Assembly (NCBI RefSeq): GCF_032116555.1
Contig: NZ_CP134949.1
Coordinates: 2,232,001-2,296,000 of the forward strand
Source of the DNA: Halorarum halobium
GTDB lineage: Archaea > Halobacteriota > Halobacteria > Halobacteriales > Haloferacaceae
Direction of reading: 5' to 3'
Length of the DNA: 64,000 nt
Shown: positions 13,341 to 50,690 of the stretch, one piece after another
Layout: each line of letters opens with the position of its first letter
Numbering within the stretch: position 1 is the first letter of the stretch
Program-made: the position numbers and the translations under genes
The notes under the pieces: model-generated
The model's input: only the letters and a program-made list of their open reading frames with translations
What the model was told of the DNA's origin: nothing
The model's database searches: none

Positions 13341-13467
13341 GGGTGGGACTGAAAGGGGCCGCGGCGCTCGTGGTGCCCCGACGACGCAAGCACCGCAGGA
13401 ACGAGGCCGCAGGCCGAGTGACGAGGAGCGCAGCGAGGCGCGGCCCACGAGCGCCGCGGGGGCTTTC
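13341..13467. repeat. Long palindromic intergenic repeat, copy A
   Basis: GAAAG-GGG-CCGCGGCGCTCGTGG...CCACGAGCGCCGCGG-GGG-CTTTC; homologous to 26550-26677 and 50648-50690. Confidence 0.88.
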
Positions 13468-13534
13468 GAGGCCACTCCGACGCTCACCTGATACTGGTTG
13501 AACCGAAGACCGCTAAAGATCCCCGAGAAGAACC

Positions 13535-14470
13535 CTAAACGTACGCGAACCACTCCTCGTGGTCGTCCGTCCGCCGCTCCACGAGGTCGAAGAACGCCTG
13601 CTGGAGTTCCTCGGTGACGGGTCCACGCGAGCCGTTGCCAATCTCGACGTTGTCCACCTGGCGGATCGGGGTCACTTCCGCGGCCGAGCCGGTGAAGAAC
13701 AGTTCGTCGGCCGTGTTGAGTTCGCCCCGCGAGATGCTCACGTTGTCGTGCACCTCGTAGCCGCGCTCCTCCGCGAGCGTGATGACCGTGTCTCGGGTGA
13801 TGCCGTCGAGGATCGACTCGCTCAGGCCCGGCGTGTAGAGCTCGTCGTCCCTGACGAGGAAGATGTTCTCGCCCGGCCCCTCCGCGACGTTCCCCTCCTT
13901 GTTCAGCACGATGGCCTCAGCGAAGCCGTTGCGGCGGGCCTCCTCGCCCGCGAGCAGCGAGTTGACGTACAGGCCGGTCGTCTTCGCGTTCGTCGGAATC
14001 TGGCTGGAGGCGTGCTTGCGCCAGGAGGAGATCTTCACCTTGATGCCGTTCTCCAGGGCCTCCTCGCCGAGGTACGCGCCCCAGGGCCAGGCGGCGACGA
14101 CGACGTCCGTCGGGCACTCGCCCGGCGAGACGCCGAGACTGTGGTAGCCGTAGTACGCGAGGGGGCGGACGTACGCCGAGTCGAGGTCGTTCCGCCGGAT
14201 CGCACCCATCGTCGCCTCGGTGAGCTCCTCGCGCGAGTAGTCGATCTCCATGTCGTACGGCTTTGCCGACTCGTAGAAGCGGTCGAGGTGCTCCTCCCAG
14301 CGGAAGACCGCCGTGCCCCGCTCGGTGTCGTACGCGCGGACACCCTCGAAGATGCCCGTACCGTAGTGGAGCCCGTGGGTGAGCACGTGGGTCGTCGCGT
14401 CCGCCCAGTCGACGAACTCGCCGTTCTGCCAGATGACCCCGCCGTCCGCCATCTCCTCGAAGGCCGTCAT
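13535..14470 (-). CDS. ilvE: Branched-chain amino acid aminotransferase
   Basis: LHYGTGIFEG, AKTTGLY (PLP Lys), EGPGEN, GITR, TGSAAE. Confidence 0.96.
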   Translation of the reverse strand: MTAFEEMADGGVIWQNGEFVDWADATTHVLTHGLHYGTGIFEGVRAYDTERGTAVFRWEEHLDRFYESAKPYDMEIDYSREELTEATMGAIRRNDLDSAYVRPLAYYGYHSLGVSPGECPTDVVVAAWPWGAYLGEEALENGIKVKISSWRKHASSQIPTNAKTTGLYVNSLLAGEEARRNGFAEAIVLNKEGNVAEGPGENIFLVRDDELYTPGLSESILDGITRDTVITLAEERGYEVHDNVSISRGELNTADELFFTGSAAEVTPIRQVDNVEIGNGSRGPVTEELQQAFFDLVERRTDDHEEWFAYV

Positions 14471-14563
14471 GCGAGACTCGAGGTATCGCCCGGACTTAAA
14501 ATCATGAGAACCGCCCGCGTTCGACGCGAACGTTGCCGGAGAACCGAGCGGGAACGGTGCAGG

Positions 14564-15241
14564 TTAGCCGAGCGCGTCGACCAGGTCCGCGCCCTCGACG
14601 TACGGGAAGCCGTGGCGCCGGGCGTACTCGCGGGCCGCTTCCGGCGCGAGCGCCGCGCCCGACTCGTCGTCGAGCATCTCACAGACCACGACCGCGGGCG
14701 CGCACCCGGCCTCCGCGGCGAGCGCGAGACCGAGTTCCGTGTGGCCGACGCGGTCGGCCAGTCCGCCGGGCGCGCCGCGCAACACGTCGACGTGGCCCGG
14801 CGAGCGGAACTCCGCCGCGAACTCCTCGGCGCCGTAGTCGTGGCCCGCGGCCACCGTCTCGGCCATCGAGGCGAGTTCGGTGATGGTGCGCGCCCGGTCG
14901 TCGTCGGTGACGCCGGTGAACGTGTCGCGGTGGTTCACCGGCAGCGAGAACGACGAACGGTCGTCGTACGCGAGGTCGTGGCCGCCCGCGGCCGGGTGGT
15001 CGAGCGCGTCCTCCAGGAACGGGAGGTCGACCGCGTCGGCGACGTCGTCCGGGACGGCGACACAGATCAGCCCGCCCGCGTCGTTCCGCATCCGGGCCAC
15101 GTCGGCCGGCGTCACCGACTCGGCTGGCGTGACGACGTCAGTCTCGCCCTCCCGGTCGGCGAAGTCGTGGACACACACCGGGTCGCCCGCGCGGAACGCC
15201 TCCAGCGCGCGGTCGAACGCGGCCGCCTGCTTGCGGCTCAT
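14564..15241 (-). CDS. ribB: 3,4-dihydroxy-2-butanone 4-phosphate synthase
   Basis: [37 protein letters not shown] overlap with ribK. Confidence 0.95.
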
Positions 15242-16011
15242 TCGGTCGCCTCCGTCCCGCCCGCAGGCTCCTCGTCGGCGTCCGCGTCCCCGGCTGTGGG
15301 GCCGTCCGCCCGCACCGCGTCCTCGACGCTCACGGTGAGTTCGTCGCCGTCGTCCAGCCCCAGTTCGTCGCGGAGCTTCGCGGGCGCGATGACCTCGAGC
15401 TGCTCCTCGTCGTGGTGGGTCCGCTCGGGGACGATGACGTGTGCCGGCTCGAACGAGCCGCCGGTCGCCTCGACGCGCGCCGCGTAACACGTCGCCGGGC
15501 CGAACGTCCGCTCGTCGTCCTCCCAGCCGTCGATGGGGACGCCGTCCACCGAGTCCATGCCCGCACGCGCCCGGACGGACGCCTCCGTGAGTGCGACGTT
15601 CAGCGTCCCCAGGAACGGCTCGTAGCCGAGCCGCTCGCGGAACTGCGCCATGTACCCCGACAGCGAGATGTAGTGGCGTCCCTCGCCCATGCCGCCGGTG
15701 ACGGTGCCCGAGAGCGTCAGGCCGGTTCCGTCCTCGAACACGCGCCGGTAGTCGGCGTACTCGGCGCGGAGGCGGCGCTCGCCCTCGTCCGTGACCGACA
15801 CCCACTGGCCGTCGCTCACCACGTCCCGGTCGAGCAGCCCCGCCTCCTCCAGCCGCTGGAGGCGGCGAGAGGCGGTCTGGCTCGACGCGTCGAGACGGTC
15901 GCCGAGCGCGGAACAGGAGACTTTGACGGGCTCGCGGAGCCCGCCGCGGAGGGCGACCGTCTTCAGCGCGGCCACCTCGTCGTGGCCGACGGTCCTCGCA
16001 GTCGTTGCCAT
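15238..16011 (-). CDS. ribK: CTP-dependent riboflavin kinase with N-terminal HTH (RbkR-type)
   Basis: w[42 protein letters not shown]. Confidence 0.93.
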
Positions 16012-16206
16012 TGGCCACAGTACCGGGGCGACCGGCAAAAGCGTATCGAAGGTGAGGTGCGTCCCGAATTCGTTATGGAGGGCGTACGATCCGGATCTCG
16101 TGAGTTAACGCGGGAGCGACACGCTGAAAAATCGTCGGATCCCGGCGTCCATCGACGGTGACCGCGCCGAGGACCGCGTGGCGTGGCCGGGCGCTTCGGA
16201 AACCCC

Positions 16207-16212
16207 TTTATC
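16207..16212 (+). promoter_or_regulatory. Putative TATA box of argS
   Basis: TTTAT about 25 nt upstream of ATG 16235, consistent with leaderless spacing. Confidence 0.5.
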
Positions 16213-16234
16213 GGCGGCGGGGGAAGCCTCGCCC

Positions 16235-17998
16235 ATGTTCAGACAGTTCCGGTCGGCCGTCGCGGCGGCGCTCGCCGAGGCGCTCGCCGAGCGCGGGTAC
16301 CCGACCGACGACCTCGGCATCGAGGAGCCGCCCGGCGACGTGGCGGCGACGCTGGCGTCGAGCGTCGCCTTCCGGCTGGCCGGCGAGGCGGGGGCCCCGC
16401 CGCCCGAGGTGGCAGCGGAGGTCGCCGACGGAATCGACGTCGACGCGACCGAGTACCTCTCCCGGGTCGAGACGAGCGGGCCGTACCTCAACTTCTTCAC
16501 CGACGACGCGTACCTCGCGGGCACCCTCGAGGCGGCCCGGGCGGACGGCTACGGCTCGCTGCCCGAGCGCGGGGAGTCGGTCGTCGTCGAGCACACCTCC
16601 GCGAACCCGACCGGCCCGGTCCACGTCGGCCGCGCGCGCAACCCGATCGTCGGCGACGCGGTTGCGAACACCCTCGCGTACGCCGGCTACGACGTGGAGC
16701 GTCACTACTACGTCAACGACGCGGGCCGTCAGATGGCCGTGTTCACCTGGGCGTTCGAGACGTTCGACGAGTCGGAGCTTCCCGAACCGGACCGCGAGAA
16801 ACCCGACTACGACCTCGTGCGGTACTACCGGAAGGGGAACAGCTTCCTCGAGGCGGGGGACCCCGACGAGGTCGCGGACGCGGAAGCCGAGATCGAGTCG
16901 ATCATGCGGGGGCTCGAATCCGGCGACGAGGCGACCTACGAGCGCGTGAGCGAGGTGGTCGACACGGTGCTCTCGGGCATGCAGGAGACGCTCTCGCGGC
17001 TCCCCGCCGGCTTCGACGAGTTCGTCAAGGAGACGCGGTTCATCCGCGACGGCAGCGCGGCCGAGGCGGTCGACCGCCTGAAGGACAGCGAGTACGCCGA
17101 GACGGACGACGGCGCGTGGGTGCTCAACCTGGGGGAGTGGGGCATCGACAAGGAGTTCGTGTTCCTGCGCTCGGACGGCACCTCGCTGTACACGACCCGC
17201 GACCTGGCCCACCACGAGTGGAAGTTCGAGAACTACGACCGCGCGGTGACGGTGCTGGGCGAGGACCAGCGCCTCCACGCGAGCCAGCTCGAGGCCGCCC
17301 TGGAGGTGCTGGGCAACGACACCGACCAGCTCACCTCGATGTTCTACTCGTGGGTGAACCTCCCCGGCGGCGAGGGGATGAGCACCAGGGAGGGCACCGG
17401 CGTCGACCTGGACGACCTGCTGGACGAGGCGATCGACCGCGCCCGCGAGGAGGTCGAGACGCGGATGGACGACCGCATCCGCGACGACGACCTCACCTAC
17501 GCGGACGTCGAGCGCATCGCCGAGCAGGTCGGCGTCGGGGCGGTCCGCTACGACATCGTCTCCAAGCAGCCGACGAAGACGATCACGTTCGAGTGGGATC
17601 ACGCGCTCGACTTCGAGGCCCAGTCGGCGCCGTACGTCCAGTACGTCCACGCGCGCTGCTGTGGCATCATCGACGAGGCGGCCGCCGGGGGGACGACCCC
17701 CGCGGCCGACGTCGACGCCGAGGCGCTCTCGACGTCCGAGGAGCGCGCCCTGCTGGCGAGCATCGCACGGCTGCCGGCCGTGATCGAGGAGGCCGCCGAG
17801 GATCTCGAACCCCACCGCGTCGCCACCTACACCCGCGAGTTCGCGGAGACGTTCAACGCGTTCTACCGCGAGTGTCCGGTGCTGACGGCGGAGGACGAAC
17901 CGACCCGCGAGGCCCGTCTCGCGCTCGTCGCCGCCTCGCGCACCACGGTCGCGAACGCGCTCGACGTGCTCGGCGTCGCGGCTCCCGAGTCGATGTAG
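16235..17998 (+). CDS. argS: Arginine--tRNA ligase
   Basis: [12 protein letters not shown] (HIGH), [30 protein letters not shown]. Confidence 0.97.
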
Positions 17999-18037
17999 GC
18001 GGTCGGAGAACTGTCGGGGCTCGATCCTTCGACGGCC

Positions 18038-18154
18038 TCAGGCGACGAGCGTGCCGCCCGAGGTGGTGACGGCGTACGCGCCCAGTCCGAGCGCGAGCAC
18101 GACGAAGACGATGACCCACCACAGCGGGACGCGACCGCTCTCTGCTTGACTCAT
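18038..18154 (-). CDS. 38-aa single-pass membrane protein (not in ORF track)
   Basis: Manual translation MSQAESGRVPLWWVIVFVVLALGLGAYAVTTSGGTLVA*; GC3-rich codons. Confidence 0.75.
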   Translation of the reverse strand: MSQAESGRVPLWWVIVFVVLALGLGAYAVTTSGGTLVA

Positions 18155-18213
18155 ACGTTGGGGTCGCGTTCGCGGCCCAATGAACTTCGCGGTTCGCCCC
18201 GGGCGAGCGAACG

Positions 18214-19626
18214 TCAGCGGAACAGTCTGCTGAGGATTCCACCGCCGGCGTCGTCCCCGTCGCCCTCCTCGTCGTCCGTCTCGTCCGCGTCCGCGGCGGC
18301 GGCCGCGGACGTGCCCTCGTCGTCGCGCTCGGCGAAGGGGATCGCCTCGTCGTCGATCGCATCGCCCTCCGCCGCCTCGTCCCCCGCGGAACCGTCCTCC
18401 GTGAACTCCTCGTACTCCTCCCGGCCGAGGACGGTCCCCCGTGCTGCCGCGGCCGCCCCGTCCTCCCCGCCGTCGTCCTCGATGATGACTGCGTCGTCCG
18501 AGACCGACTCCTCGTCGCCGGCCGACTCCTCGTCCGCGATCGACTCGTCTCCCTCGGCGACGTCCGGGTCGGCATCGTCGGCGTCGCCGGCCGGCTCCGC
18601 CGTCACGTCGGAACCGTCGGCGTCCCCGGCGGAGTCCGGTTCGTCTTCGCTATCGGGCGCTCGCTCCGCGTCTGCCGGTTCCCTCCGGTCGCCGTCGGGG
18701 TCCGTGTCCGCACCAGCGTCACCCTCGCCGTCCGAATCGACATCCACGCCGTCGTCCCCGTCTCCGTCCACCTCACCGTCGGGGTCCGCGTCCCCGTCGG
18801 AGTCCGCGTCGGTCCCCGGATCCGTGCCGGCGACGGCGGCATCACCCGGCATCGTCGGGTCCTGTTCGCCCTCCTCCACCTCGTAGGAGAGGGGCGGACG
18901 GATCGGTTCGCCCGTGAGCGAGGACGCGAGCGATCGGTAGCTCGCGGCCGCGTCGCCGCCGGGATCGTGCTGGGAAATCGGCTCCCGTGCCGCGATCGCG
19001 TCGGCGATGACCGACTCCTCCTCGATCCGCCCGAGCACCGGTGCCTCGAACGCCCCGGGGTCGACGTCGGCGGCCGCGAGCGCGGACTCGAGCGTGTCGT
19101 CGGGGCCGACGCGGTTGAGCGCGATGCCGACGATCGTCCCGCCGAGCCGTTCAGTCAGGTCGATCGTCTTGCCCGTGTCGACGATGCCGTCCCGTGTCGG
19201 CGTCGAGACGAGCAACACCCCGTCCGCGAGCGAGAGCGGGAGCGCGCTCTCGTGGGTGAGCCCCGCGCCGGTGTCGACGACGACGTAGTCGGCAGCCGTG
19301 ATCGACCCGAGCACCTCGCGGATCCGCGAGGGGTCGGCCGTCCGGAACGCCGACAGCGACTGGTCGCCCGGGACCACCGAGAGCCCGTGGGGGCCCTCGT
19401 AGGTCGCGTCCGCCGGGTCGGCCTCGCCGGCGAGCACGTCGTGGAGCGTCGCCCCGTCTTCCGGTACCTCGAGGCCGAGCGCCGGCGCGAGGTTGGCGGT
19501 CCCGATGTCGCCGTCGACCGCCACCGTCTCGAACCCGGCGGCCGCGAGCGTCGCCGCCAGGTTGGCGGCGGTCGTCGTCTTCCCGACTCCCCCCTTCGCG
19601 CTGGCGACGGCGTAGATAGTCGGCAT
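18214..19626 (-). CDS. minD: MinD/ParA-family ATPase with long acidic tail and C-terminal amphipathic helix
   Basis: KGGVGKTT deviant Walker A, DGD, DTGAG; about 220-aa D/E-rich tail ending GGGILSRLFR. Confidence 0.9.
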   Translation of the reverse strand: MPTIYAVASAKGGVGKTTTAANLAATLAAAGFETVAVDGDIGTANLAPALGLEVPEDGATLHDVLAGEADPADATYEGPHGLSVVPGDQSLSAFRTADPSRIREVLGSITAADYVVVDTGAGLTHESALPLSLADGVLLVSTPTRDGIVDTGKTIDLTERLGGTIVGIALNRVGPDDTLESALAAADVDPGAFEAPVLGRIEEESVIADAIAAREPISQHDPGGDAAASYRSLASSLTGEPIRPPLSYEVEEGEQDPTMPGDAAVAGTDPGTDADSDGDADPDGEVDGDGDDGVDVDSDGEGDAGADTDPDGDRREPADAERAPDSEDEPDSAGDADGSDVTAEPAGDADDADPDVAEGDESIADEESAGDEESVSDDAVIIEDDGGEDGAAAAARGTVLGREEYEEFTEDGSAGDEAAEGDAIDDEAIPFAERDDEGTSAAAAADADETDDEEGDGDDAGGGILSRLFR

Positions 19627-19651
19627 TTGGGAGGAATCGGAGGCACGGTGA

Positions 19652-19657
19652 TATAAA
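19652..19657 (-). promoter_or_regulatory. Putative TATA box of minD
   Basis: TTTATA on the minus strand about 26 nt upstream of ATG 19626. Confidence 0.6.
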
Positions 19658-19805
19658 GGTGGGTCCCAGCGTCCGACACCGCTGCCGCGAGTCTCGACCG
19701 GGCAGAGCCGCCATCGGCGGGTTCGGCGGCCGCCGGGCGGACGACGGATGTGGACGTATCGCAGTATTCAACAGTTACTTACACGCACGCCGGCGACTAG
19801 GACCA

Positions 19806-21068: not shown

Positions 21069-21167
21069 GCCGGCGATCAGGGTCCCGGTAACCGGTTCTC
21101 GGGGGCGTGTGTGTCGGTACCACGCCACCAGCCGATTCAAGAGGGGGAACCGAGAACCGACGGTCGA

Positions 21168-22244: not shown

Positions 22245-22344
22245 CCCCGGACCGTTCCCGCCGTCAGACGCACGGGAACGGCAGCCGCTCGGCCGGCCGC
22301 GCGGGCCCAGTTTTACGGTAACGGGGTGAGACGTCCCAGCAGCG

Positions 22345-22776: not shown

Positions 22777-22806
22777 TGCCCCGGGCGACCGATCCACGGG
22801 AGCCGC

Positions 22807-24985: not shown

Positions 24986-25195
24986 GGCTGTTGGTGGTGG
25001 CTTGCCGGCGGAGGGTGTTAATGCTTGTTAGTCTGCCCGCGATTCTCGGGAGCAGGCGTCACGACCGTAGTCAGTACTCGGCTGGTGACGACCTCGAAAG
25101 CCCCCGGACGCTCGACCGTCGGCCCTCGGCCGCCGGTAGTCGTGCGGTGGCCCGAGTGCGGTGGCTTTTCGGCCCGACCACGAGACGTCGGTCCC

Positions 25196-26467
25196 ATGAC
25201 CCCTCCACCCCGCCTGGTTCACCTCTCGGACCTGGAGACGATCTACGACCGACCCGAGGACGCCGGCCGGCTAGCCGGTGCCGTCGAGGCGTTGCGGGAC
25301 GAGCGAACGATCGTCGTCACCACCGGCGACACGACCGCCCTCGGGTCGCTCGCGCTCGCGACCGACGAGGGTCGGCGCCACGGACTGCCGTTCATGCGTG
25401 CTGTCGCCCCGGTCGCGAGCACCTTCGGGAACCACGACCTCGACGAGGGGCCGGGCTGGGCCGCCGAGTGGGCGCGCGACGTGCCCGGCACCCACCTCGC
25501 GGCGAACCTCGACGGCCTCGCCGCCGACGCGTTCGAACCCGGCCTCCTCACGGAGGTGGACGAAGCGCGCGTCGGCCTCGTCGGCGTCGTCAACCCCCGC
25601 ACGCCGGAGATGTGTCACGCCGTCGAGTCGCTGACGTTCACCGACCCGGTCGAGGCGGTCCGCAGGGAGGCCGCCGCCCTCCGCGACAGGGGTGCCGAGT
25701 TCGTCGTCGTCCTCTCCCACTGCGCGAGCGTCGACGCGGACATCGCGGGCGGGACCGACGTCGACGCGGTGCTCGGCGCGCACGACCACGAGCAGGTCGA
25801 GGAGCGTGTCGACGGGACGCTCGTCGCGCGCACCCGCGGCGGACAGGCGAACGAGTACGAGGTCGTGACGCTCGGCGAGGACCCGGCGGCCGACGTCCGG
25901 GACCTGACTGACGCGCCGGTGGACGGGCCGGTCGCCGCCGAGTACCGCGAGCGCCGCGCGGCCGCGGGCATCGACGAGGAAGTGTGCTCGTTCCCCGAAC
26001 CGCTCCCGGAGGCCGAAACCGGGTGGGCCGTCGCCGAGACGTACCGCGTCCGAGGCGAGGCGGACATCGGCGTCGTCGTCGCCGGATCGGTCCGGGGCGG
26101 CTTGCCCGCGACCATCACGGTCGGCGACCTGCTCGGCGTCGTCCCGTTTTCGTCACACCTCCACACGCTCGCCGTCGGCGGCGAGGACCTCGCGAACGCG
26201 ATTCGGCTCGGTCGCGACGAGCCCGACGACACCCACGGCCGCATGTACGTCGCGGGCGCGTCCGTACGCGAGGACGGGCCGGTCGTCGTCGACGACGACC
26301 CGATTTCCCCCGACGCCACCTACCGTGTCGCCTGCACGAGCTATCTCACCGAGGTCGCCCCGCTCCCGGGGTTCGAGCCGGATGCGCTCGTCGCGGACCA
26401 CGGGCTCCAGTACGAGCACATCATCGCGCAGGCACGGGCCGGGGAGTTCGGTCGCGACGTGGAGTGA
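25196..26467 (+). CDS. Bifunctional metallophosphatase/5'-nucleotidase family protein
   Basis: SDLE, TGD, GNHD, LSH, GAHDH motifs plus C-terminal GSVRGG...VVPF domain. Confidence 0.85.
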   Translation: MTPPPRLVHLSDLETIYDRPEDAGRLAGAVEALRDERTIVVTTGDTTALGSLALATDEGRRHGLPFMRAVAPVASTFGNHDLDEGPGWAAEWARDVPGTHLAANLDGLAADAFEPGLLTEVDEARVGLVGVVNPRTPEMCHAVESLTFTDPVEAVRREAAALRDRGAEFVVVLSHCASVDADIAGGTDVDAVLGAHDHEQVEERVDGTLVARTRGGQANEYEVVTLGEDPAADVRDLTDAPVDGPVAAEYRERRAAAGIDEEVCSFPEPLPEAETGWAVAETYRVRGEADIGVVVAGSVRGGLPATITVGDLLGVVPFSSHLHTLAVGGEDLANAIRLGRDEPDDTHGRMYVAGASVREDGPVVVDDDPISPDATYRVACTSYLTEVAPLPGFEPDALVADHGLQYEHIIAQARAGEFGRDVE

Positions 26468-26549: not shown

Positions 26550-26677
26550 GGGCGGGAATGGAAGGGGCCGCGGGTCTCGGGGAAGGCGCGGACCGTCAAG
26601 CACCACAGGCGAGCGACCGGAGGGAGCGAGACGAGGAGCGCAGCGGCCGCACCGAGCCGAGACCCGCGGGGGCTTCC
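26550..26677. repeat. Long palindromic intergenic repeat, copy B
   Basis: GGAAG-GGG-CCGCGGGTCTCGG...CCGAGACCCGCGG-GGG-CTTCC; shares CAAGCACCRCAGG and GACGAGGAGCGCAGCG with copy A. Confidence 0.88.
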
Positions 26678-26757: not shown

Positions 26758-28191
26758 TCAGTCCGCCGAGACTTCCTCGGCCGACTCGTCGCCGCCCGTG
26801 ATGTCCTCGCGGTAGTGCTCCTCGATGAGGTCCTCGCCGACGCGGTTGAGTTCCTCCCTCGGCAGCGTCGAGAGGAGGTCCCAGCCGATCTCGAGCGTCT
26901 CGTCGATGGTGCGGTCCGTGTCGTACCCTTGCTCGACGAACTCCTCCTCGAAGCGGTCCGCGAAGTCGAGGTACTTGTTGTCGCGCTCGGAGAGCGCCTC
27001 CCGACCGACGATGTTCACGAGGTCGCGCAGGTCCTCGCCCTCCGCGTACGCCGCGTACATCTGGTCGGAGACGTCGCCGTGGTCCTCGCGGGTGAGCCCC
27101 TCGCCGATGCCGTCGTCCATCAGGCGCGAGAGGCTCGGCAGCACCTGCACCGGGGGCTGGATGCCCTGGCTGTGCAGGTCGCGGTCGACGTAGATCTGCC
27201 CCTCCGTGATGTAGCCGGTCAGGTCCGGGATCGGGTGGGTGTCGTCGTCGCCCGGCATCGTGAGGATCGGAATCTGGGTCACCGAGCCGTCACGACCCTC
27301 GATCCGGCCCGCGCGCTCGTACAGCTGCGCCAGGTCGGTGTACATGTAACCGGGGTAGCCACGCCGCCCCGGGACCTCCTCGCGGGCCGCCCCGATCTCG
27401 CGGAGCGCCTCGCAGTAGTTGGTCATGTCCGTCAGGATGACGAGCACGTGGTAGTCCTTGTCGAACGCGAGATACTCCGCGGTCGTCAGCGCCATCCGCG
27501 GGGTGACCGTCCGCTCGACCGCGGGGTCGTCCGCGAGGTTCATGAAGACGACCGAGCGCTCCAGCGCGCCGGTGCGCTCGAAGTCCTCCATGAACTCGTT
27601 GGCCTCCTCCTGGGTGATGCCCATCGCGCCGAAGATCACCGCGAACTCCGAGCCCTCGTCGTCCTCGGACGCCTCGTCCTCCTCGGGCACGGTCGCCTGG
27701 CGTGCGATCTGCAGCGCCAGGTCGTTGTGGGGCAGCCCCGAGGCCGAGAAGATCGGGAGCTTCTGGCCCCGGACCAGCGTGTTCATGCCGTCGATCGAGG
27801 ACACGCCGGTCTGGATGAACTCCTCGGGGTACTCCCGGGAGACGGGGTTGATGGCGGCGCCGACGATGTCGCGCCGCTCGTCCGGGACGATGTCCGGGCC
27901 GCCGTCGATCGGCTGGCCCGAGCCGTCCAGCACCCGCCCGAGGAGGTCCTCGGTGACGGGCATCTTCAGCGTCTCGCCCAGGAAGCGGACGGACGCGTTG
28001 CGGTCGATGCCGGTGGTCCCCTCGAACACCTGGATGGCGACGAGGCCGTCCTCGCTCTCGAGGACCTGGCCGCGCTTCGTGTCGCCGCCGGGCGTCTCGA
28101 TCTCGACGATCTCGTCGTAGCCGACGGGCTCGTCGACCTCGGCGTACACGAGGGGGCCACTGATCTCCGTGATTGTCTGGTACTCTTTCAT
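26758..28191 (-). CDS. atpB: A-type ATP synthase subunit B
   Basis: [34 protein letters not shown]. Confidence 0.98.
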
Positions 28192-41136: not shown

Positions 41137-41320
41137 AAACCGTAGGGCATCCGGCGAGCGCTTCCGGGTGCGACCCGGTTCCGTCGTTGCGTCGACTACT
41201 TCGAAACGGGGGCGGGACTGGTCCTGACGCCAAGGATGGACGGACTTCCGGGGAGCCTCCGCTCGGGACACGGCCACTTACGACCAGAAATCCACGGCCG
41301 AACCGACTACCCCACCTGAC

Positions 41321-42667: not shown

Positions 42668-42812
42668 ACTCCCCGCGTCACCCCCGACGAATAAAGTCCT
42701 TCAGGTTCGATGCGAAGTTAGACGCCGTATAGTACTGTTGAACCCCCTGGCCGGCGAACCGAACCGGCTGGTACCCCCAACCGTTTAGCGACCCGAGTGC
42801 GACCCGCCGACC

Positions 42813-44216: not shown

Positions 44217-44296
44217 ACGGGGCCGATTCCGTCGGAAGCGGGCCGGGCGGCGACGCCGTGCGATGGTGCTTTGAGCGTCCCCCGCCAACGGCCGCT

Positions 44297-44734
44297 GTGA
44301 CACGAGACGGCTCGGACGCGGGGACCGGTGCCGAGGCGGGGGCCGGGACGGGCGAGCGCGCGACTGGAGCCCCCGGCGTCGATCCGAGCGGGTCGGGCGA
44401 TCCGAGCGGGCCGGGGGATCCGAACGACGTGGGCGACCCGACGGACGACCGCGCCCCCGACCGACCGCCCCGGGCCGCGATGCTGGAGGCGCTGTCGGTC
44501 CGCCGGAACGTGCTCGCGGGGCTCGCGGCCGGCGTCGCGCTCGCGCTCCTCGTCTACCTCGTCCGGACGTTCGAACTCCTCGGGCCGAACCTGGAGACGC
44601 GACAGTACCCGCTGCTCGGCCCGGAGGGCTACTTCCTGCTGCTCGGCTTCGTGCTGGCGAGCGCGACGGCCATCCTCGTCGCCACCGCGCTCACCGTCGT
44701 CTCCGTCGTGCGACTCGCCAGGGAGGAAGTGTAG
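44297..44734 (+). CDS. Hypothetical two-TM membrane protein
   Basis: Low-complexity N-terminus followed by two hydrophobic helices; start codon uncertain. Confidence 0.7.
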   Translation: MTRDGSDAGTGAEAGAGTGERATGAPGVDPSGSGDPSGPGDPNDVGDPTDDRAPDRPPRAAMLEALSVRRNVLAGLAAGVALALLVYLVRTFELLGPNLETRQYPLLGPEGYFLLLGFVLASATAILVATALTVVSVVRLAREEV

Positions 44735-44782
44735 GTTCGGAACCGGACGCACCGGCCGGTACCCGTCCGCGTTCGCACCCGC

Positions 44783-46006
44783 TCAGTCCTCGAACTCGCG
44801 CGGGTCACCGACGAGCCGCGAGAGCCGCTCCGCGCCCGCCCTGGTTCCCTTCGCGAGCACCACGTCGCCGGCTCGGAGCGCCGTCCCGCTCCCGGGCGAG
44901 ACGACCCACTCGCCGTCGCCATCGGCGCCGGCCGGCCGGCGGACGGCGATGACGCGCATCCCCGTCTCCTGTTTCACCGTCCGCTCGCCGAGCGTCGCGT
45001 CGGCGAGTTCCGACCCCGACGCGACCGACAGGCGCACGATGACCTCGTCGGAGGCTTCGACGGCCTCGGCGACGACGGGGTGGGCGTCGAGCCCACGGAG
45101 GACGCCCTCGCTGATCTCCAGGGCCGCGTCGCTGATCACCTCCGTCGCCGACGCGAGGTGGACGAGTCCACGGAGCGAGACGGGGTCCTCGACCCGGGCC
45201 GCCGCGCGGAGCGTCCAGGCCTCGAATCGTGACTTGAGCGCGTCGACCTCCGCCTCCAGTTCCGCGACCTCGCCCGCGACCGCCTCGCTGTTGAACAGCA
45301 CCGAGCCGTACGCCAGGTCGACGGCGAGTTCGCTCATGTTCTTCATCAGCACGACCGAGTCGACGGCGCGCTCGAGGTCCTCGACTCCCGCGGTGGGGGC
45401 GTCCGGTTGAACGTAGGACTCCCCCGTGGCGGCCTCATAGACCGTCCGGAGCCCCTCCTCGCCCCCGCGGAGGAACAGCGTGTCGCCGGGCTCGATGGTG
45501 GTCTCGGCGTCCGGGTTGAGCAGCCACTCCGTGCCGCGCCGCAGGGCGATGACACGGACCCCCGTCTCGGTTTCGACGTTCGCGTCGGCGAGCGTCCGCC
45601 CGGCGTAGGCCGAGTCGTCCGCGAGTTCCGCCCGGACTAGCGTCTCGACCGCCTCGGGCAACGCGGCGCGGATCGCGTCGGGGAGCCCCACCTCCTCCAA
45701 CACGACCTTCGCGATGTCGCCCGCCGCGTCGCTGATCTTCTCGGCCGCGCCGATGACGCCCAGCACGGGCGCGAGTTCCTCGGCGTCCTCCGGCGAGCGC
45801 GCGGCCATCATCACGCTCATCCGGGCCTGTAACTGCAGCTGGTCCATGCGGGACTCCAGTTCGAGCACCTCCCCCGCGAGGTCGGCGCTCCCGTGGAGCA
45901 CCGCGGAGTACGAGAGGTCGATGAGCAGCTCCGCGGTGTCCTTCATCTCCGCGAGCACTGCCTTCACGGAGGTCGGCTCGTACGCGACGCGGTCCTCGGG
46001 GGTCAT
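44783..46006 (-). CDS. PhoU + TrkA-C (RCK_C) tandem-repeat protein
   Basis: Internal duplication MKDTAELLIDLSYS / MKNMSELAVDLAYG and ETGVRVIALRR / ETGMRVIAVRR. Confidence 0.88.
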   Translation of the reverse strand: MTPEDRVAYEPTSVKAVLAEMKDTAELLIDLSYSAVLHGSADLAGEVLELESRMDQLQLQARMSVMMAARSPEDAEELAPVLGVIGAAEKISDAAGDIAKVVLEEVGLPDAIRAALPEAVETLVRAELADDSAYAGRTLADANVETETGVRVIALRRGTEWLLNPDAETTIEPGDTLFLRGGEEGLRTVYEAATGESYVQPDAPTAGVEDLERAVDSVVLMKNMSELAVDLAYGSVLFNSEAVAGEVAELEAEVDALKSRFEAWTLRAAARVEDPVSLRGLVHLASATEVISDAALEISEGVLRGLDAHPVVAEAVEASDEVIVRLSVASGSELADATLGERTVKQETGMRVIAVRRPAGADGDGEWVVSPGSGTALRAGDVVLAKGTRAGAERLSRLVGDPREFED

Positions 46007-46073
46007 CCGTCGTGGGCGGCTTCGACGGGCCGGCGGAAAAGGGTTGCTCGCACGGGACCGTGCGGTTCCCGCC

Positions 46074-46135
46074 CGGCTCAGGCCGCTTCGGTCTCCAGTG
46101 ACGGCTCAGGCCGCTTCGGTCTCCAGTGACGGCTC
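46074..46135. repeat. Perfect 28-bp tandem duplication
   Basis: CGGCTCAGGCCGCTTCGGTCTCCAGTGA x2 followed by CGGCTC. Confidence 0.95.
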
Positions 46136-47269
46136 CGGCGTGGAAGCGCCCTCCGGTGCCGCCCGTTCGAGCAGTTCGATCACGAACTCCGTCCCCGCCG
46201 GACCCGTGCTGTGCAGTTCGAGCCTCCCCCCGTACAGTTCGACGAGGTTCCGCGTCAGGAACAGCCCGTAGCCGTGATCGCCCGACCTCGGCGGTTCGAA
46301 GAGTCGCTCGCGCTCGGTTCGCGGGATTCCACGACCGTCGTCGCTGACGCGAACCGAGACGCGCTCCCCGTCGGCTTCGACCGAGAGCGTGATGGTGACC
46401 CCGGCCTCGTTGTGCTCGACCGCGTTCTCGATCAGGTTGACGAGCACCCGGTCGAGGAGGTCGCCGGCCAGCACGAACGCCGAGTCCGGGGCCTCGAGCA
46501 CGAGTTCCGCCTCCGGATGGGAGCGCCCGATCCAGTCGAGTTCCGTTTCGATGACCGAGACCACGTCGAGCACTTCGAGCTCCGGGTCGTGGTCCGTCGT
46601 ATCCAGGATGTCCCGGATCGAGTCGATGAACAGGGCGATGTCCTCGCTGCTGTGGCGGATGATGTCGAGATAGCCGGCCGTCGCCTCGGTCTGTTCGCCC
46701 CGTTCGGCGAGCAGGCCGGCGTAGCCGTTGATCTTCGCGACCTCGTTCAACACCTCGTGTCTGAGGTAGTTGTTCAGGTGTTCGAGCTGTTCGCGCTCCC
46801 GCTTGCGGCGTCGCGCGACCAGCCGCGATCGGTTCCGCTCGCGTTCGCTCTGTTTCGATCTGACGCCCATGATTCCGATGACCGACCCGGAGGAGGCGCC
46901 GAACCCGGTCGACAGCAGGAGGATCAGCCAGCGCTCGCCGGGGTCGAACGTCGTCTCGATGACGAACAGCGCCGCGTACATCGCCACGACGAACAGCAGC
47001 GCGCTCCCGGCCGTCCAGCCGATCACCGGCGGCCGGAGTTCGGGGTCGGTGTCCGACTCGTGGAGCCACATCGCCGCCGCGAGCAGGACGACCGACGGGA
47101 TCGCGAGCAGGATGACCTCGAGGTAGCCGTCGAGGCTCGAGTCGGCGATCTCGCGTGCGTCCTGAAACACGTAGAAGAAGGACACGTACGCGACGGTGAA
47201 CCCGACCCACAGGAACGCCATGATTCGCGTCGTGGTGAGGCACCGTCCGGTTCCGAGGGGAGGTCCCAT
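46106..47269 (-). CDS. Membrane sensor histidine kinase
   Basis: 4 TM helices, LRHEVLN H-box, NLIENAVEH, DDGRGI, GYGL; start at 47269 or 47221. Confidence 0.92.
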   Translation of the reverse strand: MGPPLGTGRCLTTTRIMAFLWVGFTVAYVSFFYVFQDAREIADSSLDGYLEVILLAIPSVVLLAAAMWLHESDTDPELRPPVIGWTAGSALLFVVAMYAALFVIETTFDPGERWLILLLSTGFGASSGSVIGIMGVRSKQSERERNRSRLVARRRKREREQLEHLNNYLRHEVLNEVAKINGYAGLLAERGEQTEATAGYLDIIRHSSEDIALFIDSIRDILDTTDHDPELEVLDVVSVIETELDWIGRSHPEAELVLEAPDSAFVLAGDLLDRVLVNLIENAVEHNEAGVTITLSVEADGERVSVRVSDDGRGIPRTERERLFEPPRSGDHGYGLFLTRNLVELYGGRLELHSTGPAGTEFVIELLERAAPEGASTPEPSLETEAA

Positions 47270-47386
47270 CGCCTACGCAGTCCGCCAATCGGCATACAGC
47301 GTTTACTATGATGACTCAATACTGCCCACTATTCGGACGGAGGGCTACTAGAAGCAGTTATTCTCGGGTGCCGCCGTTCGCCGGCC

Positions 47387-47977
47387 GTGTCACGAGGAAC
47401 CGGCGGGTCGACCGGGGTCGGCGACGCGATCGGGCGGGACCCACGCTGGGAACGCACGGTCCTCGCTCTCGGACTCCTCAGCGCGCTGCTGTTCGGACTC
47501 GGGCTACAGGTGACCGAGGCGGCCGGCGAGTTCGCGGTCGACGTGGACCTCAAGCCGTTCTTCATCCCGTACCTGCTCGTCGGCCTGGCCAGGTTCGGCA
47601 TCCCGACTCTGTCGGTCGGGCTCGGGGCCGCGCTCGGCGAGGGCGTCCTCGACGTGTTCGAGGGGTACGAACTGGACGACCCGATCGGGTTCATCGGCTA
47701 CGTCGTCGGCTTCGTCGTGTTCGGCTGGTATCTCGACCAGCGAACCGCGGACCCGACGTCGTCCCGGTCGCTCGTCGTCGCGGCCGTCCTCGGCGCGCTC
47801 GCCCAGGCCGTGTTCGAGGGATCGGCGTTCCTCATCTTCGACCCGAGCGCCGGCCCCCTCGCCGCGACGCTCAGCGTCCTGGGGAACACGGTCACCCACG
47901 GAGTCCTGCTGGGCGCGATTCCGCTCGTGCTGCTCCACGACCCGGTTCGGCGGCGGTTCGGCGCGTACGTGCCGTGA
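47387..47977 (+). CDS. Hypothetical membrane protein, possibly ECF S-component-like
   Basis: About 6 hydrophobic helices in 196 aa; GAALGE motif. Confidence 0.7.
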   Translation: MSRGTGGSTGVGDAIGRDPRWERTVLALGLLSALLFGLGLQVTEAAGEFAVDVDLKPFFIPYLLVGLARFGIPTLSVGLGAALGEGVLDVFEGYELDDPIGFIGYVVGFVVFGWYLDQRTADPTSSRSLVVAAVLGALAQAVFEGSAFLIFDPSAGPLAATLSVLGNTVTHGVLLGAIPLVLLHDPVRRRFGAYVP

Positions 47978-48060
47978 CTGGAGGGCCGAGCCGCCGGGGG
48001 ACTGACGGGACCCCCCGCGACCGGTTCATCGCCCGTCCGACTCGTTCACGGAACGGCCGC

Positions 48061-48525
48061 TCACTCCCGAAACAGCCGATAGGAAGTCCGCCCGACCGCG
48101 ACGTCCTTCTGCTCGCCGTCCGGGTCGACGCTCGAGACGACCGTGTCGGTGTAGCCCATCGAGCCGCCCGTCCGGAGCACCTCGGCTTCGACGCGGAGGT
48201 CGTCAGTCGCGGGCCGGAGGTAGGTGACGTTCAGGTCGGTCGTCGCCAGCGACCCGGTCGTCGGGTCGTCGAACGTCGAGCGGAGCGCGAACCCGGACGC
48301 GGTGTCCACGAGCGTCGCCGCGATGCCGCCGTGGATGGAGCCGACGGGCGAGCCGGGGTTCACCAGCTTCTCGTCGTACGGGACGGACATGACGATGCGG
48401 CCGCGATCGAGCTCCTCGACGCGCAGGTTCAGCCACGAGAGGAAGCCGTGGCTCTCGATGAACGACTGGAGCAGTTCGACGTGGTCGGCGTCGAGGTCCG
48501 GGAACAGTTCGTCGTCCTCGCTCAT
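48061..48525 (-). CDS. PaaI-family thioesterase
   Basis: NP...HGGIAATLVD, TDLNVTYLRPA. Confidence 0.92.
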   Translation of the reverse strand: MSEDDELFPDLDADHVELLQSFIESHGFLSWLNLRVEELDRGRIVMSVPYDEKLVNPGSPVGSIHGGIAATLVDTASGFALRSTFDDPTTGSLATTDLNVTYLRPATDDLRVEAEVLRTGGSMGYTDTVVSSVDPDGEQKDVAVGRTSYRLFRE

Positions 48526-48620
48526 GGGAGAAGGGGGCCGCCGCGGTACTTCACCGTTCGGAAGTCGCCGGGCGGTAGCCGCCGCCTCGGGTCAGTACCG
48601 AACCCGCGTCCCCGTCCGAG

Positions 48621-49325
48621 TCAGTCCTCGCCGTCGGCGACGACGCTCTCGCCCGTGTCGTCACGCTCGTCGGTACCGTCGTCCCCGGCGGCGCTCTGTC
48701 GACCCTCGGCGGCGCTCACCGGCCCGCCGTCGCCCTCGCCGAAGCCGGCCGAGAGGACGCGGGTGAGCGCCTCCTCGACCCGCTCGTCCGTCTCGGTGAT
48801 GTCGGCCGACTCCACCTCCAGCACGAACCCGGTGGTGATGTTCGGCGCTGTCGGCATGAACAGCACCTCGCGGTCGTCGCTCGTTCGCTTGCCGGTCTTG
48901 AACGCCGTCATCCGCATCCCCTCCCAGGGCTCGATGCGGACGGGCTTCTGGAGTTCGTCGGTCCCGGTGAGCGCCGTCTCGACCGCGAGCTTCGACGCGT
49001 TGTACAGCACCCGAATCACCGGGAGGCGGTTGATGGCGGCGTCGAGAAATCCCTCCGCGAACCGCCCCGCGGTCGTCCGCATCATGTACCCGGCCGCGAA
49101 CACGACGAGGACGAACACCGTCAGGACGATGACGACCTGCAGGAGGTTGACGACGAACGCGACGAGCCAGTCGGCCATCCCCGGCGGCGGCGACTCCCAG
49201 ACCACCGTCGGGACGAACGGGAGTTCGAGGAGCTGGGTGTAGAGCCAGTTGGCGACGAACAGGATGACGAGCAGCGGGATCACGACCACGAGCCCGCTTG
49301 CGAAGTCCCGCTTCCACGTGGACAT
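48621..49325 (-). CDS. DUF502 family membrane protein
   Basis: FASGLVVVIPL, RLPVIRVLY, FMPTAPNITTGF. Confidence 0.9.
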   Translation of the reverse strand: MSTWKRDFASGLVVVIPLLVILFVANWLYTQLLELPFVPTVVWESPPPGMADWLVAFVVNLLQVVIVLTVFVLVVFAAGYMMRTTAGRFAEGFLDAAINRLPVIRVLYNASKLAVETALTGTDELQKPVRIEPWEGMRMTAFKTGKRTSDDREVLFMPTAPNITTGFVLEVESADITETDERVEEALTRVLSAGFGEGDGGPVSAAEGRQSAAGDDGTDERDDTGESVVADGED

Positions 49326-49436
49326 TGTTGTGCTACTTCACGTTCGGGGACGAGGGGTTATCAGCGCTTCTACACGCGCGAGGCTCGCCCTCGGAGGCGA
49401 ACGAGCCGGACGGACCTCCGGGGGAACTCGGTCCGT

Positions 49437-50276
49437 TCAGACGCCAACGACCGCCCGCAGCGCGAACAACAGGTTCTCCTTGCGCTCGCGCACGCGGCGG
49501 TAGAAGTACGAGAGCCACTTGTCGCCGTAGGGCGCGTACTGCCACACCTCCACGCCCTCGGCGGCGAGTTCGCGCTGGGCGTCCGGGCGCACGCCCATGA
49601 GCATCTGGACCTCGAACCCGGCGCCGTGTTCCGCGTGGAGCTCCTTCGCGTACGAGATCATCGCGGGGTCGTGGCTCCCGACCGCGATGCCGCCCTCCCG
49701 GCGCGAGAACAGCAGTTCCAGCCCCTCGCGGTACGCCTCGTTCACGTCGGCCTTGTCGGTGTACGCGATTTCGGGGTCCTCGTCGTAGGCCCCCTTCACG
49801 AGCCGGAGTTTGCCGGGGACGTCGGCGAGCCGGTCGAGGTCCTCCCGCGTGCGCCGGAGGTTCGCCTGCACGCAGAGGCCGACGCCGCCGTCGTGTTCGC
49901 GCGCCAGCTCCTCGAAGGCGTCGAGCGTCGCGCCCGTCGTGGTTGCGTCCTCCATGTCACACCAGACGAACACGTCGTGCTCCCGGCCCGCCTCGACGAC
50001 CCGGCCGAAGTTCTCGCGGAACACGCCCTCGCCGACGTCGAGGCCGAGTTGTGACGGCTTGACCGAGACGCAGGCGTCGAGGTCGGTGCCGCCGATGTCG
50101 GCGACGAGCGACTCGTAGGTCGCGGCGTCCTCGTCGGCCGGGGCGCGCTCGTGGTAGTGTTCGCCCAGGAGGTTGAGGATGACCTTGACGTCGTCCTCGT
50201 TCTCCCGGCGGGCGTGTTCGAACGCCGCCGCGGGCGTCTCGCCCGCGACGAACCGGCTCGCGATGGGAGGAATCAT
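49437..50276 (-). CDS. Proline dehydrogenase (monofunctional)
   Basis: RFVAGE, LLGE, SVKPSQLG, DME, RLVKGAY, SHD, QMLMG, YFYRRVRER. Confidence 0.94.
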   Translation of the reverse strand: MIPPIASRFVAGETPAAAFEHARRENEDDVKVILNLLGEHYHERAPADEDAATYESLVADIGGTDLDACVSVKPSQLGLDVGEGVFRENFGRVVEAGREHDVFVWCDMEDATTTGATLDAFEELAREHDGGVGLCVQANLRRTREDLDRLADVPGKLRLVKGAYDEDPEIAYTDKADVNEAYREGLELLFSRREGGIAVGSHDPAMISYAKELHAEHGAGFEVQMLMGVRPDAQRELAAEGVEVWQYAPYGDKWLSYFYRRVRERKENLLFALRAVVGV

Positions 50277-50491
50277 CTGGTCGCACGCTTGCCACCCCCC
50301 CGTCTTGAGTGTTGTCGGTTCTGCTCCGCGGTGTCCGGGCGGAGTGGTATCTTTCGCGGTGTTCTCCGGATTTTTGTCGCGTGCGTGTTCTGACCGGTCG
50401 TCGTCGCAGGGGTGACGCTGGTGACGACCGCGGAAGCCCCGCGGCTCTGTCATTCCCGTCCACCGGTTTTCCTATCAAGCGTCGTTCCCCT

Positions 50492-50526
50492 GACTACCGA
50501 ACGTGCACGCCGTGGGCAGTCCACCG
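50492..50526. repeat. GACTACC hairpin module
   Basis: 32/35 identical to the reverse complement of 13276-13310. Confidence 0.85.
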
Positions 50527-50647
50527 TGACGCCGCCCGGCTGACGGTCGACGGGATGTGGCGGGCGCGACCGCGAGCGACCCGTGGGAGCGAGCCGCGCC
50601 CGCCGGGGAGGCGTGGGGAGCCCACGCGACGACCCGACCGTCCCACG

Positions 50648-50690
50648 GGGCGGGACTGAACGGGATCGGATCGGGCGTCCGGGGGCTTTC
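50648..50690. repeat. Short copy C of the palindromic intergenic repeat
   Basis: GGGCGGGACTGAACGGG...CCGGGGGCTTTC; retains both ends of copies A/B with a short inner stem. Confidence 0.75.

Follow-up and report, generated by a model that had tools for sequence, protein, structure and literature searches.

Repeat Copies within the Window

The window analyzed here, meaning the whole 64,000-nucleotide stretch of contig NZ_CP134949.1 of Halorarum halobium (positions 2,232,001 to 2,296,000), contains three copies of a palindromic repeat, A (13341-13467), B (26550-26677) and C (50648-50690), which were located, head included, where the first-pass annotation had placed them. In what follows, G000 denotes the H. 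halobium genome itself (99.9% complete), and G001, G002, G020, G201 and the like denote comparison haloarchaeal genomes; coordinates of all features are collected in Table 1. The stems, the GGG/GGG bubble and the inner motifs described for copies A and B were all found again, and both copies fold as claimed, with DNA folding z-scores on the G-rich strand of -2.8 and -1.9, respectively, the opposite strand giving -3.6 and -2.8. The short copy C shows no fold (DNA z +0.8). Copy A proved to be only the right 127 bp of a mosaic of about 405 bp, copy C ends a mosaic of about 200 bp that is also present in G002, and a fourth remnant, overlooked earlier, consists of a right arm and tail on the minus strand.

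Table 1. Positions of repeat parts and flanking genes within the window, with the basis of each assignment.
Feature	Position	Strand	Basis or comparison
Whole mosaic element, site A: outward-facing left modules, central modules, head + hairpin + tail	13071..13475	.	End-to-end alignment with 5 other G000 copies, partial with G001 and G002 copies; module census
E2 end motif (GCAGTAGTGGTCT type)	13071..13083	-	9 intergenic copies in genome
U1 G-rich module GGYTGGGGAGG	13104..13114	-	76/77 copies intergenic
U2 small inverted repeat GACTACC...GGTAGTC	13281..13310	.	26 copies, all intergenic
Copy A unpaired head GGGYGGGAMT	13341..13350	+	Head pattern
Hairpin A: 5-bp basal stem, GGG/GGG bubble (13356-58 / 13460-62), variable covarying stem, inner arm with C(GCA)G triloop cap	13351..13467	+	
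Lone right arm + tail	25085..25125 (approximate)	-	Full element at same site in G002
Copy B, head + hairpin	26550..26677	+	Only decayed heads left at site in G001 and G002
Mosaic ending in short copy C (50648-50690)	50495..50690	+	G002: same mosaic, another short form; G001: long hairpin with nested insertions
Flanking gene, APH-family phosphotransferase, outside element	11804..12979	+	
Flanking gene, class IV aminotransferase	13535..14470	-	
Flanking gene, 5′-nucleotidase-like	25196..26467	+	
Flanking gene, A-type ATP synthase alpha/beta-family subunit	26758..28191	-	
Flanking gene, FAD-binding oxidoreductase	50749..51378	-	

Family Size, Spread and Genomic Placement

The genome-wide collection of copies that had been proposed as a check returned more than 100 chromosomal copies, with 115 heads in G000, 114 of them intergenic. 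Exact heads occur in 79 of the 201 genomes of the class Halobacteria, at 0-80 per genome and in bursts that differ even inside one genus. Heads with at most 2 mismatches numbered 136 in 3.68 Mb versus 6 in a 1.5-Mb order-4 Markov control, and the reversed head pattern gave no match in the 201 genomes. The location downstream of gene 3′ ends holds within the window (two convergent spacers, one tandem) but not genome-wide, since divergent genes flank 31 and convergent genes 17 of the 103 head-bearing G000 spacers, proportions like those of the background (p=0.27 and 0.56, the gene calls used for spacer typing being approximate), with no fixed orientation relative to the flanking genes. Most chromosomal copies are solitary and lie between housekeeping genes. 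No match to the hairpin family was found in phages, a single match on a viral contig being located inside a phage gene and regarded as chance, and no description of the family was found in the literature, searches with sequence strings included.

Stem Covariation and a Probable DNA-Type Fold

Compensatory changes that preserve pairing, first described from copies A and B, were confirmed both among the G000 copies and across genera. In 54 G000 copies the variable stem is 91% Watson-Crick versus 55% (maximum 66%) with shuffled partners, and in 42 copies from many genera pairing reaches 95.9%, with 90 two-sided changes versus 22 in shuffles (0/500 shuffles as high). The alternative stem pairs comprise 147 Watson-Crick, 20 G·T and 5 A·C. 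Template-switch correction of palindromes can likewise produce stem covariation.

The G·G bubble and the tandem G·A pairs are nearly invariant. G·G is found at the three bubble positions in 53/54, 54/54 and 53/54 G000 copies, and tandem GA/AG pairs in 45/54 and 43/54. Of 49 apical loops on the G-rich strand, 35 are of the C(GNA)G type, every base being represented at N, and 2 are GNRA. GNA mini-hairpins number 159 on the G-rich strand versus 16 on the opposite one, GNRA tetraloops also exceed the shuffle in hairpin interiors (53 vs 29±6), and nearest-neighbor folding gave no separation of the two strands. The excerpt of PMC13037366 describes DNA mini-hairpins as formed only by GNA triloops, names the priming site of phage G4, ssiA of RSF1010 and the N4 promoters as places where such mini-hairpins occur, and reports poor SSB binding by a DNA fragment with two GAAA-loop mini-hairpins. 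Considering (i) the GGG/GGG bubble, (ii) the tandem G·A pairs, and (iii) the C(GNA)G triloops, the features point to single-stranded DNA, not RNA, as the folding molecule, and a fold of the hairpin module is predicted for just one of the two DNA strands.

Turnover, Mosaics and Re-Copies

Comparison of filled and empty sites revealed hairpins present or absent at orthologous positions between relatives, which reflects both gain and loss, the relatives being too distant for exact empty sites. Together with the covariation and the copy-number bursts, this supports the earlier description of a structure-selected, non-autonomous, dispersed element. Hairpin interiors are swapped and flipped among copies, nested modules are inserted within the hairpin, and a minimal, core-deleted form measures 22 bp. 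In G000, dispersed intergenic palindromes form inverted pairs and mosaics; paired ends point outward, on opposite strands, and tail identity stops at scattered places with no sharp common boundary. Extra arm-plus-tail copies occur in 30 of 107 elements, mostly at 57-nt spacing. A CRISPR-like reading of these 57-nt units was rejected, their middles sharing a consensus (45% identity vs 28% expected), and local duplication of the copy's own arm as their source found no support (12/24). One contig from an RNA run lacks 79 nt of a hairpin and may represent a strain variant (assembled contigs, not raw reads).

Association with the Plasmid ssb Leader

Plasmid ssb genes of the Rfa5/6 type (the Rfa5/Rfa6 or HVO_A0019 family in the excerpt of PMC5924565) were found on 160 haloarchaeal plasmids, and in all six plasmid loci compared (two identical) the same hairpin stands at the distal end of this gene's conserved folded leader. 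With a model built from chromosomal copies only, 11 of 25 ssb loci matched at E<0.01, both G000 ssb genes among them; all 11 matches lie on the ssb template strand, 280-780 nt upstream, and none downstream. The other 14 loci gave no match (one is masked and one carries a variant visible by eye), so that ssb loci do not always have the hairpin, which might have inserted next to the leader long ago. The ssb match is also absent in four high-copy relatives, three being incomplete MAGs and the fourth 92% complete. The leader model finds only 5 sites in G000, and the other chromosomal modules are therefore not leader-derived at E<0.01. The leader variant of the hairpin carries only GG tracts, and the template strand of leaders shows no excess of GNA loops (46 vs 40±6 shuffled). 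There is no conserved TATA box either: of 22 leader stretches scanned, several of which were truncated, only 3 have a TATA-like box within the covarying stem.

The hairpin-bearing ssb plasmids carry VirB4-like, VirD4-like and primase-like genes. Upstream in C2 there is a VirB4-like match (E 8e-46) and a weak VirD4-like one; a 674-aa protein of C2 falls, by Atlas look-up, in its own cluster, 'putative primase/helicase', with AEP/RepB′-type leads under 0.9, and a 'DNA primase' is annotated at the equivalent position on NZ_CP100450.1. The IS110 adjoining the pHV4 copy was discarded as a mobilizer, as it is the insertion that splits the leader.

A Single-Strand Signal as Preferred Interpretation

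Since the hairpin caps the plasmid ssb leader and its stem covaries, it is likely to be a signal on single-stranded DNA. We tentatively prefer, as a quite possible explanation, that conjugative-type megaplasmids use it as an ssi/Frpo-like single-strand signal and that its spread across chromosomes was non-autonomous. The fold would arise only on single strands, as during conjugative entry, on the lagging strand or in repair; GNA mini-hairpins would keep SSB off it and leave it accessible to a primase or polymerase; chromosomal copies would propagate by single-strand recombination or conversion between copies, and MITE hitch-hiking may add to the spread in some lineages. Narrower, and somewhat unlikely in this full form, is the proposal that an archaeal priming or recognition hairpin, the outer module of an archaeal Frpo/ssi-like ssb leader of conjugative megaplasmids, turned into a self-propagating chromosomal repeat that is copied via plasmid primase or host single-strand recombination without a transposase, leaving re-copies of fixed length (57 or 50 nt), and that may help transferred chromosomal DNA to become double-stranded.

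An imperfect palindrome is common to the haloarchaeal hairpin, F Frpo1/Frpo2, RSF1010 ssiA, the phage G4 origin and the N4 promoter. In the excerpt of PMC9849209, Frpo2 of the F plasmid lies upstream of ssbF and has a predicted ssDNA fold, just as the present hairpin precedes a plasmid ssb gene and lies on its template strand; GNA mini-hairpins are shared with ssiA and the N4 promoters, as these are described in the PMC13037366 excerpt. The haloarchaeal family differs from ssi/Frpo signals in being archaeal, in its G·G bubble and in its more than 100 chromosomal copies, and, unlike in Frpo, its stem has no conserved TATA and promoter boxes are not rebuilt in the fold.

Alternative Explanations and the Search for an Enzyme

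A functionless passenger, comparable to the small mobile repeats (SMR), which spreads in IS6-type MITEs and by conversion between copies, with a stem perfected by template switching and the ssb-leader copy as an old insertion, is unlikely. It would fit the absence of the hairpin from about half of the leaders, as well as a 325-bp unit of G201 in which an IS6-type inverted-repeat pair, with ends resembling true IS6 elements, brackets the hairpin (L284), and a single IS6-type end that precedes a unit of about 330 bp, the unit itself being present three times in G020. Nested modules enter the hairpin much as SMR-A enter PATE palindromes in the excerpt of PMC3119063. Nevertheless, an IS6-type end lies within 600 bp of only 4 of 136 heads outside G000 and of none of the 115 in G000; L284 is the one head among those 136 that stands between such ends, as in the IS6-family MITEs of haloarchaea, and the hairpin is a passenger there; G000 has neither an IS6 match nor such ends. 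Template switching, moreover, should erase the G·G bubble and the G·A pairs, which are the most constant features.

That the repeat is a PATE/REP-type end or whole element, cut and pasted as ssDNA by a Y1 HUH enzyme (TnpA/RAYT) acting in trans or now lost, is quite unlikely. The irregular one-strand hairpin, the REPIN-like inverted pairs and the Y1 genes of 4 out of 11 high-copy relatives speak for it. The other 7 relatives (two of them incomplete genomes) have no Y1 gene, and G000 gave 0 Y1 matches, a custom profile reaching E 1.7 at best. As G000 also yielded 0 IS110 and 0 IS6 matches, the HUH/REP reading of the first-pass annotation is left unsupported. The expected copies beside tnpA/tnpB-type genes did not appear either, no head lying within 1.5 kb of any of 36 Y1 or 17 TnpB loci; G000 has a single TnpB, without the repeat beside it, no multi-copy IS protein and no Y1 RAYT gene flanked by the repeat. 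No HUH motif was seen in the four genes that have a copy on either side, which are housekeeping judging by sequence, and the outward-facing ends on opposite strands also stand against a Y1 element, as may the unsharp tails. The one rolling-circle Rep (DUF1424) of G000, in a small tRNA-adjacent island, has no hairpin at its locus; a hairpin does lie within 1.5 kb of 2 of the 3 Rep loci in two high-copy relatives, perhaps by chance. A Replic_Relax search gave no match anywhere, its controls being equally silent.

REP/BIME/REPIN (RAYT), Neisseria NIME and streptococcal BOX are dispersed intergenic palindromes that form mosaics, inverted pairs and tandem sub-units and expand in lineage-specific bursts, all of which the present family shares; it is set apart from REP/REPIN by its 120-nt irregular stem with a G·G bubble and by having no RAYT-like Y1 gene, either next to its copies or anywhere in the genome. 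Closer to home are the PATEs and SMR-A of Haloquadratum walsbyi, which, as far as the excerpt of PMC3119063 describes them, are likewise haloarchaeal, non-coding and palindromic, without target duplication, with core deletion by short repeats (compare the 22-bp form), nested insertion into palindromes and variable terminal 20-50 bp, and mobile without intact TnpA, PATEs moving even in a strain in which every tnpA copy is broken. Terminal inverted plus direct repeats were found at 0 of 115 G000 heads, consistent with the PATE and IS200-IS605 end criterion. Unlike PATEs, the family shows no link to IS605/IS1341 ends in 53 loci and has inverted, outward-facing ends, though it may still be identical with one of the HqIRS families. 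Of the traits of SMR-A (~110 bp, inverted ends, no duplication, insertion into PATE/IS605 palindromes), the family agrees in length and in leaving no duplication, and modules nest inside its hairpin, but no insertion into IS605 ends was seen.

Also quite unlikely is a recombination site that works as a single strand in the manner of attC and by which cargo arrays would be marked and built. Integron attC sites fold on one strand with conserved mismatches, as the hairpin does, and on pHV4 and NZ_CP100450.1 cargo is surrounded by leader pieces plus hairpin that all point the same way; three same-strand copies occur among the small genes of a G020 island, and the 57-nt arm-plus-tail re-copies would also fit. 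Extra genes in G001 occur at 6 of 22 head sites versus 13 of 157 other spacers (p=0.016), an excess reduced against length-matched spacers (4/40, p=0.15). The repeated plasmid pieces, however, share 60-350 bp, sufficient for ordinary recombination, and unlike attC the hairpin has no R-box-like core that could be seen and is mostly found alone between housekeeping genes. Among 68 loci, recurring neighbors were limited to orthologous housekeeping genes and, at 2 loci, the ssb gene, with no recurring recombinase or integrase.

A structured RNA, that is, a 3′-UTR element or small RNA as also proposed at first, is very unlikely: covariation, tandem G·A pairs (which occur in RNA too), the GNRA excess and the convergent position of both long window copies are compatible with it, but the background-like spacer types and variable orientation, the DNA-type GNA apical loops and the rarity of G·T wobbles are not, and an Rfam search gave no match to any family model. 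Finally, a quadruplex-duplex hybrid, with a G-quadruplex assembled in molar KCl from two G-tracts of the head and two of the bubble, is highly improbable. Although 85 of 109 copies have GGG in every one of the four tracts and all 109 have at least 2 G in each, this count is partly circular, copies being selected on the head, and the leader variant has only GG.

Biological Significance

Relaxases and the ssDNA route in archaeal conjugation are stated as unknown in the excerpt of a 2025 review (PMC12282955), and that of PMC3119063 calls the mobilization of haloarchaeal small repeats enigmatic. With the preferred single-strand signal, a conserved, predicted one-strand DNA fold before the plasmid ssb provides a concrete cis site on pHV4 of Haloferax volcanii, and more than 100 copies in a genome without a Y1, IS110 or IS6 match make the question of small-repeat mobilization testable. 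Should the hairpin be only a passenger repeat, it would still be an unannotated, class-wide mosaic family that shapes the intergenic DNA of these archaea.

A hairpin family in haloarchaeal spacers

One covarying hairpin family with conserved mismatches is dispersed in chromosomal mosaics and optionally occupies the outer end of the leader preceding a plasmid ssb gene. The three window copies proposed in the first-pass annotation were confirmed at their positions, and A and B do form the long stem and GGG/GGG bubble described for them, while C does not fold. In the source genome (G000), 115 heads (GGGYGGGAMT, at most one mismatch) were detected, 114 of them outside called genes, together with 139 nhmmer matches to the family. 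The exact head is present in 79 of 201 genomes of the class, corresponding to 42 of 66 genera, with 0 to 80 heads per genome and a wide spread within a single genus, the reversed control pattern giving 0 matches in the same 201 genomes. All 68 loci listed upon exact scanning of the genome collection are haloarchaeal, this list being a sample, as G000 alone has 80 exact heads of a slightly shorter pattern; so are the 30 plasmids listed of 44. No description of the family was found in the literature searched, where Haloquadratum PATE and SMR elements were compared through main-text descriptions.

The unit consists of the unpaired head, a basal stem of 5 bp, three G·G oppositions, a variable stem of 13-14 bp, one tandem G·A pair and an inner arm that is irregular. 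Among the 115 copies of G000, 54 measure 100-140 nt, 22 are longer due to nested insertions, 2 are intermediate, 31 are of 45 nt or less (a few being mis-ended long copies) and 6 lack the tail that follows the right arm. The most frequent short form is the hairpin minus all sequence between its two CCGCGG hexamers.

Coordinates of hairpin copies and other features (window positions unless a contig, C1 or C2 (plasmid) of G000, or a fetched locus, L, is named)
Feature	Coordinates	Observation
Copy A	13341-13467	End of a ~405-bp mosaic
Copy B	26550-26677	
Copy C	50648-50690	Short
E2 end-motif re-copy	13020-13070	Degenerate, tandem; past the left end of mosaic A
Sole TnpB gene of G000	C1:488618-489950 (L001)	Immediately follows a tRNA gene, on the margin of a low-GC stretch
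Small tRNA-adjacent element	C1:2306000-2312400 (L282)	Rolling-circle Rep (DUF1424); low-GC cargo of three genes, one of them kinase-like
Low-GC (46-59%) island	C1:~2715000-2761000 (L143, L144)	ssb gene with leader, TraD/VirD4-like gene, TFB, QueE/FolE/QueC-like genes (assigned by eye from the sequence), 1279-aa helicase, OLD-type ATPase
Second island, three partial ssb leaders	C1:2938129-2938377, 2974339-2974656, 2978303-2978445	One precedes an ssb remnant
Conjugative-type block	C2:60000-100000 (L145, L146)	VirB4-like, 1467-aa VirD4-like and 674-aa primase-like genes, then ssb, TFB and DUF6735; many small same-strand genes, leading-region-like; no relaxase among genes identified
Island of genome G020	L204:4600-16700	Toxin-antitoxin-like and HTH genes, three near-identical ~330-bp hairpin units, other duplicated blocks
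ssb leader before a TFB gene	L213:26772-27341	First TFB codons resemble the ssb start

Stem conservation and type of fold

In 54 G000 copies, the variable stem is 91% Watson-Crick, versus 55% with shuffled partners. Among 42 copies drawn from many genera, pairing holds in 95.9% of cells and two-sided changes amount to 90 versus 22 in shuffles (0 of 500 matching the observed value), slid controls giving 35-51%; these statistics ignore relatedness and include a part of the stem that the search pattern itself fixed. It is the mismatches that vary least within the hairpin. Of 49 apical loops, 35 are C(GNA)G and 2 GNRA, G·T pairs number 20 versus 147 alternative Watson-Crick pairs, and 159 GNA mini-hairpins occur on the G-rich strand (that reading the head) versus 16 on the opposite one. 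According to PMC13037366, GNA triloops alone form DNA mini-hairpins, and such motifs are located at single-strand priming and promoter sites. The structure is kept and looks like DNA, although GNRA loops also reach ~2x the shuffle level and folding energies fail to tell the two strands apart.

Mosaics and turnover

The hairpin is one module within larger mosaics, whose other modules (U1, U2, U3, E2 and inserts) are also nearly all intergenic, and paired mosaic ends lie on opposite strands, pointing outward. Extra tail copies follow the hairpin in 32 of 107 scored elements (30 once two mis-ended ones are removed), at 2.3 per kb versus 0.09 in other spacers. Their spacing is exactly 57 nt in 22 of 43 cases in G000 and 50 nt in 9 of 15 at loci of other lineages; the E2 re-copy near mosaic A parallels the 57-nt ones at the other end type. 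These units share a loose common consensus and are therefore not captured spacers; nor are they clearly copies of their own element's arm.

When G000 was compared with 1.18 Mb of its relative G001, over 397 gene pairs in synteny at 86% identity, at least 22 spacers had a head in G000; in G001, 7 of these have a head, 4 have remnants and 11 have nothing, the head being absent from both genomes in at least 366 of the pairs. Interiors are often unlike at shared sites, and flipped ones were found in 4 of the 69 copies from outside G000 but in 0 of 58 within it. At site A, relatives have other genes together with a decayed copy; at B they have decayed heads and at C other short or long forms, and the site at which the window keeps the tail alone holds a full copy. 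At one Haloferax locus, the 22 genomes compared divide into 6 with a full copy, 2 keeping the tail alone, 2 whose short spacer is empty, 1 with cargo and a decayed copy, and 11 that have other genes and, in the parts inspected, no hairpin. Neither target duplications nor a sharp common end were found among the copies. In its manner of spreading, the family resembles REP/BIME-type mosaics. That the hairpin is a functionless passenger appears unlikely, in our estimation.

Mobility and RNA readings

A link to HUH (Y1) transposases and REP systems, put forward in the first-pass annotation, was not borne out: searches of G000 (99.9% complete) gave no match to Y1, IS110 or IS6, its one TnpB gene has no repeat beside it, and no head occurs at 36 Y1 or 17 TnpB loci. 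Y1 is absent in 7 and present in 4 of 11 high-copy relatives. The hairpin does not qualify as a PATE end, as part of a RAYT system or, in G000, as an IS6 MITE. A PATE/REP moved by Y1 is quite improbable. Among 136 heads examined, one lies in an IS6-type MITE (L284, from genome G201) and another is a one-sided case (L204). Equally improbable is an attC-like site; the excess of cargo (p=0.016) fades once length-matched (p=0.15).

The earlier proposal of a structured 3'-UTR RNA was likewise rejected, since the 103 head-bearing spacers (31 divergent, 17 convergent, 55 tandem) resemble head-free spacers of at least 200 bp (p=0.27, 0.56) and an Rfam search with the family gave no match; a structured RNA of any kind is very doubtful. 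A quadruplex hybrid is the least probable reading.

The plasmid ssb leader

The pHV4 copy matches 215-316-bp stretches on other plasmids, and in all six plasmid loci fetched (two identical) a ~290-aa OB-fold gene lies 350-490 bp from the match, directed away. The DNA from its start codon to the hairpin is a conserved leader rich in hairpins. This ssb gene, found on 160 plasmids, is of the Rfa5/Rfa6 / HVO_A0019 family, as outlined in PMC5924565, pHV4's own copy being assigned by position and size. With a model of chromosomal copies only, 11 of 25 ssb loci match upstream, on the template strand of ssb, and 0 downstream; among the 25, two are from G000, two are identical and one is masked. C2 has VirB4-like, weak VirD4-like and primase-like genes ahead of the hairpin, with genes for TFB and DUF6735 after ssb, an order repeated on NZ_CP100450.1. 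In the latter and in pHV4, leader pieces and hairpin are repeated around cargo in a single orientation. A long-range stem of the leader covaries; the leader shows no conserved TATA box, and its template strand has no enrichment of GNA loops. Separately, an HNH endonuclease whose N-terminal part has repeated units lies downstream of ssb in 4 of the 6 plasmid loci (L137-L142; two identical), the low-GC island of C1 looks, from its gene content, like a defence-laden integrated conjugative remnant, and the leader-TFB arrangement of L213 is likely a deletion fusion.

In the F plasmid, Frpo2 sits upstream of ssbF and is required for its early expression, as stated in PMC9849209, and the hairpin would be alike to ssi/Frpo sites in fold and place. 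We tentatively favor, while holding it somewhat short of an even chance, a single mechanism in which (i) the hairpin would fold once its strand is single, (ii) GNA mini-hairpins would let the folded strand resist SSB, (iii) a primase or polymerase would read the folded hairpin, and (iv) copies would spread through single-strand recombination, conversion and, now and then, MITE carriage.
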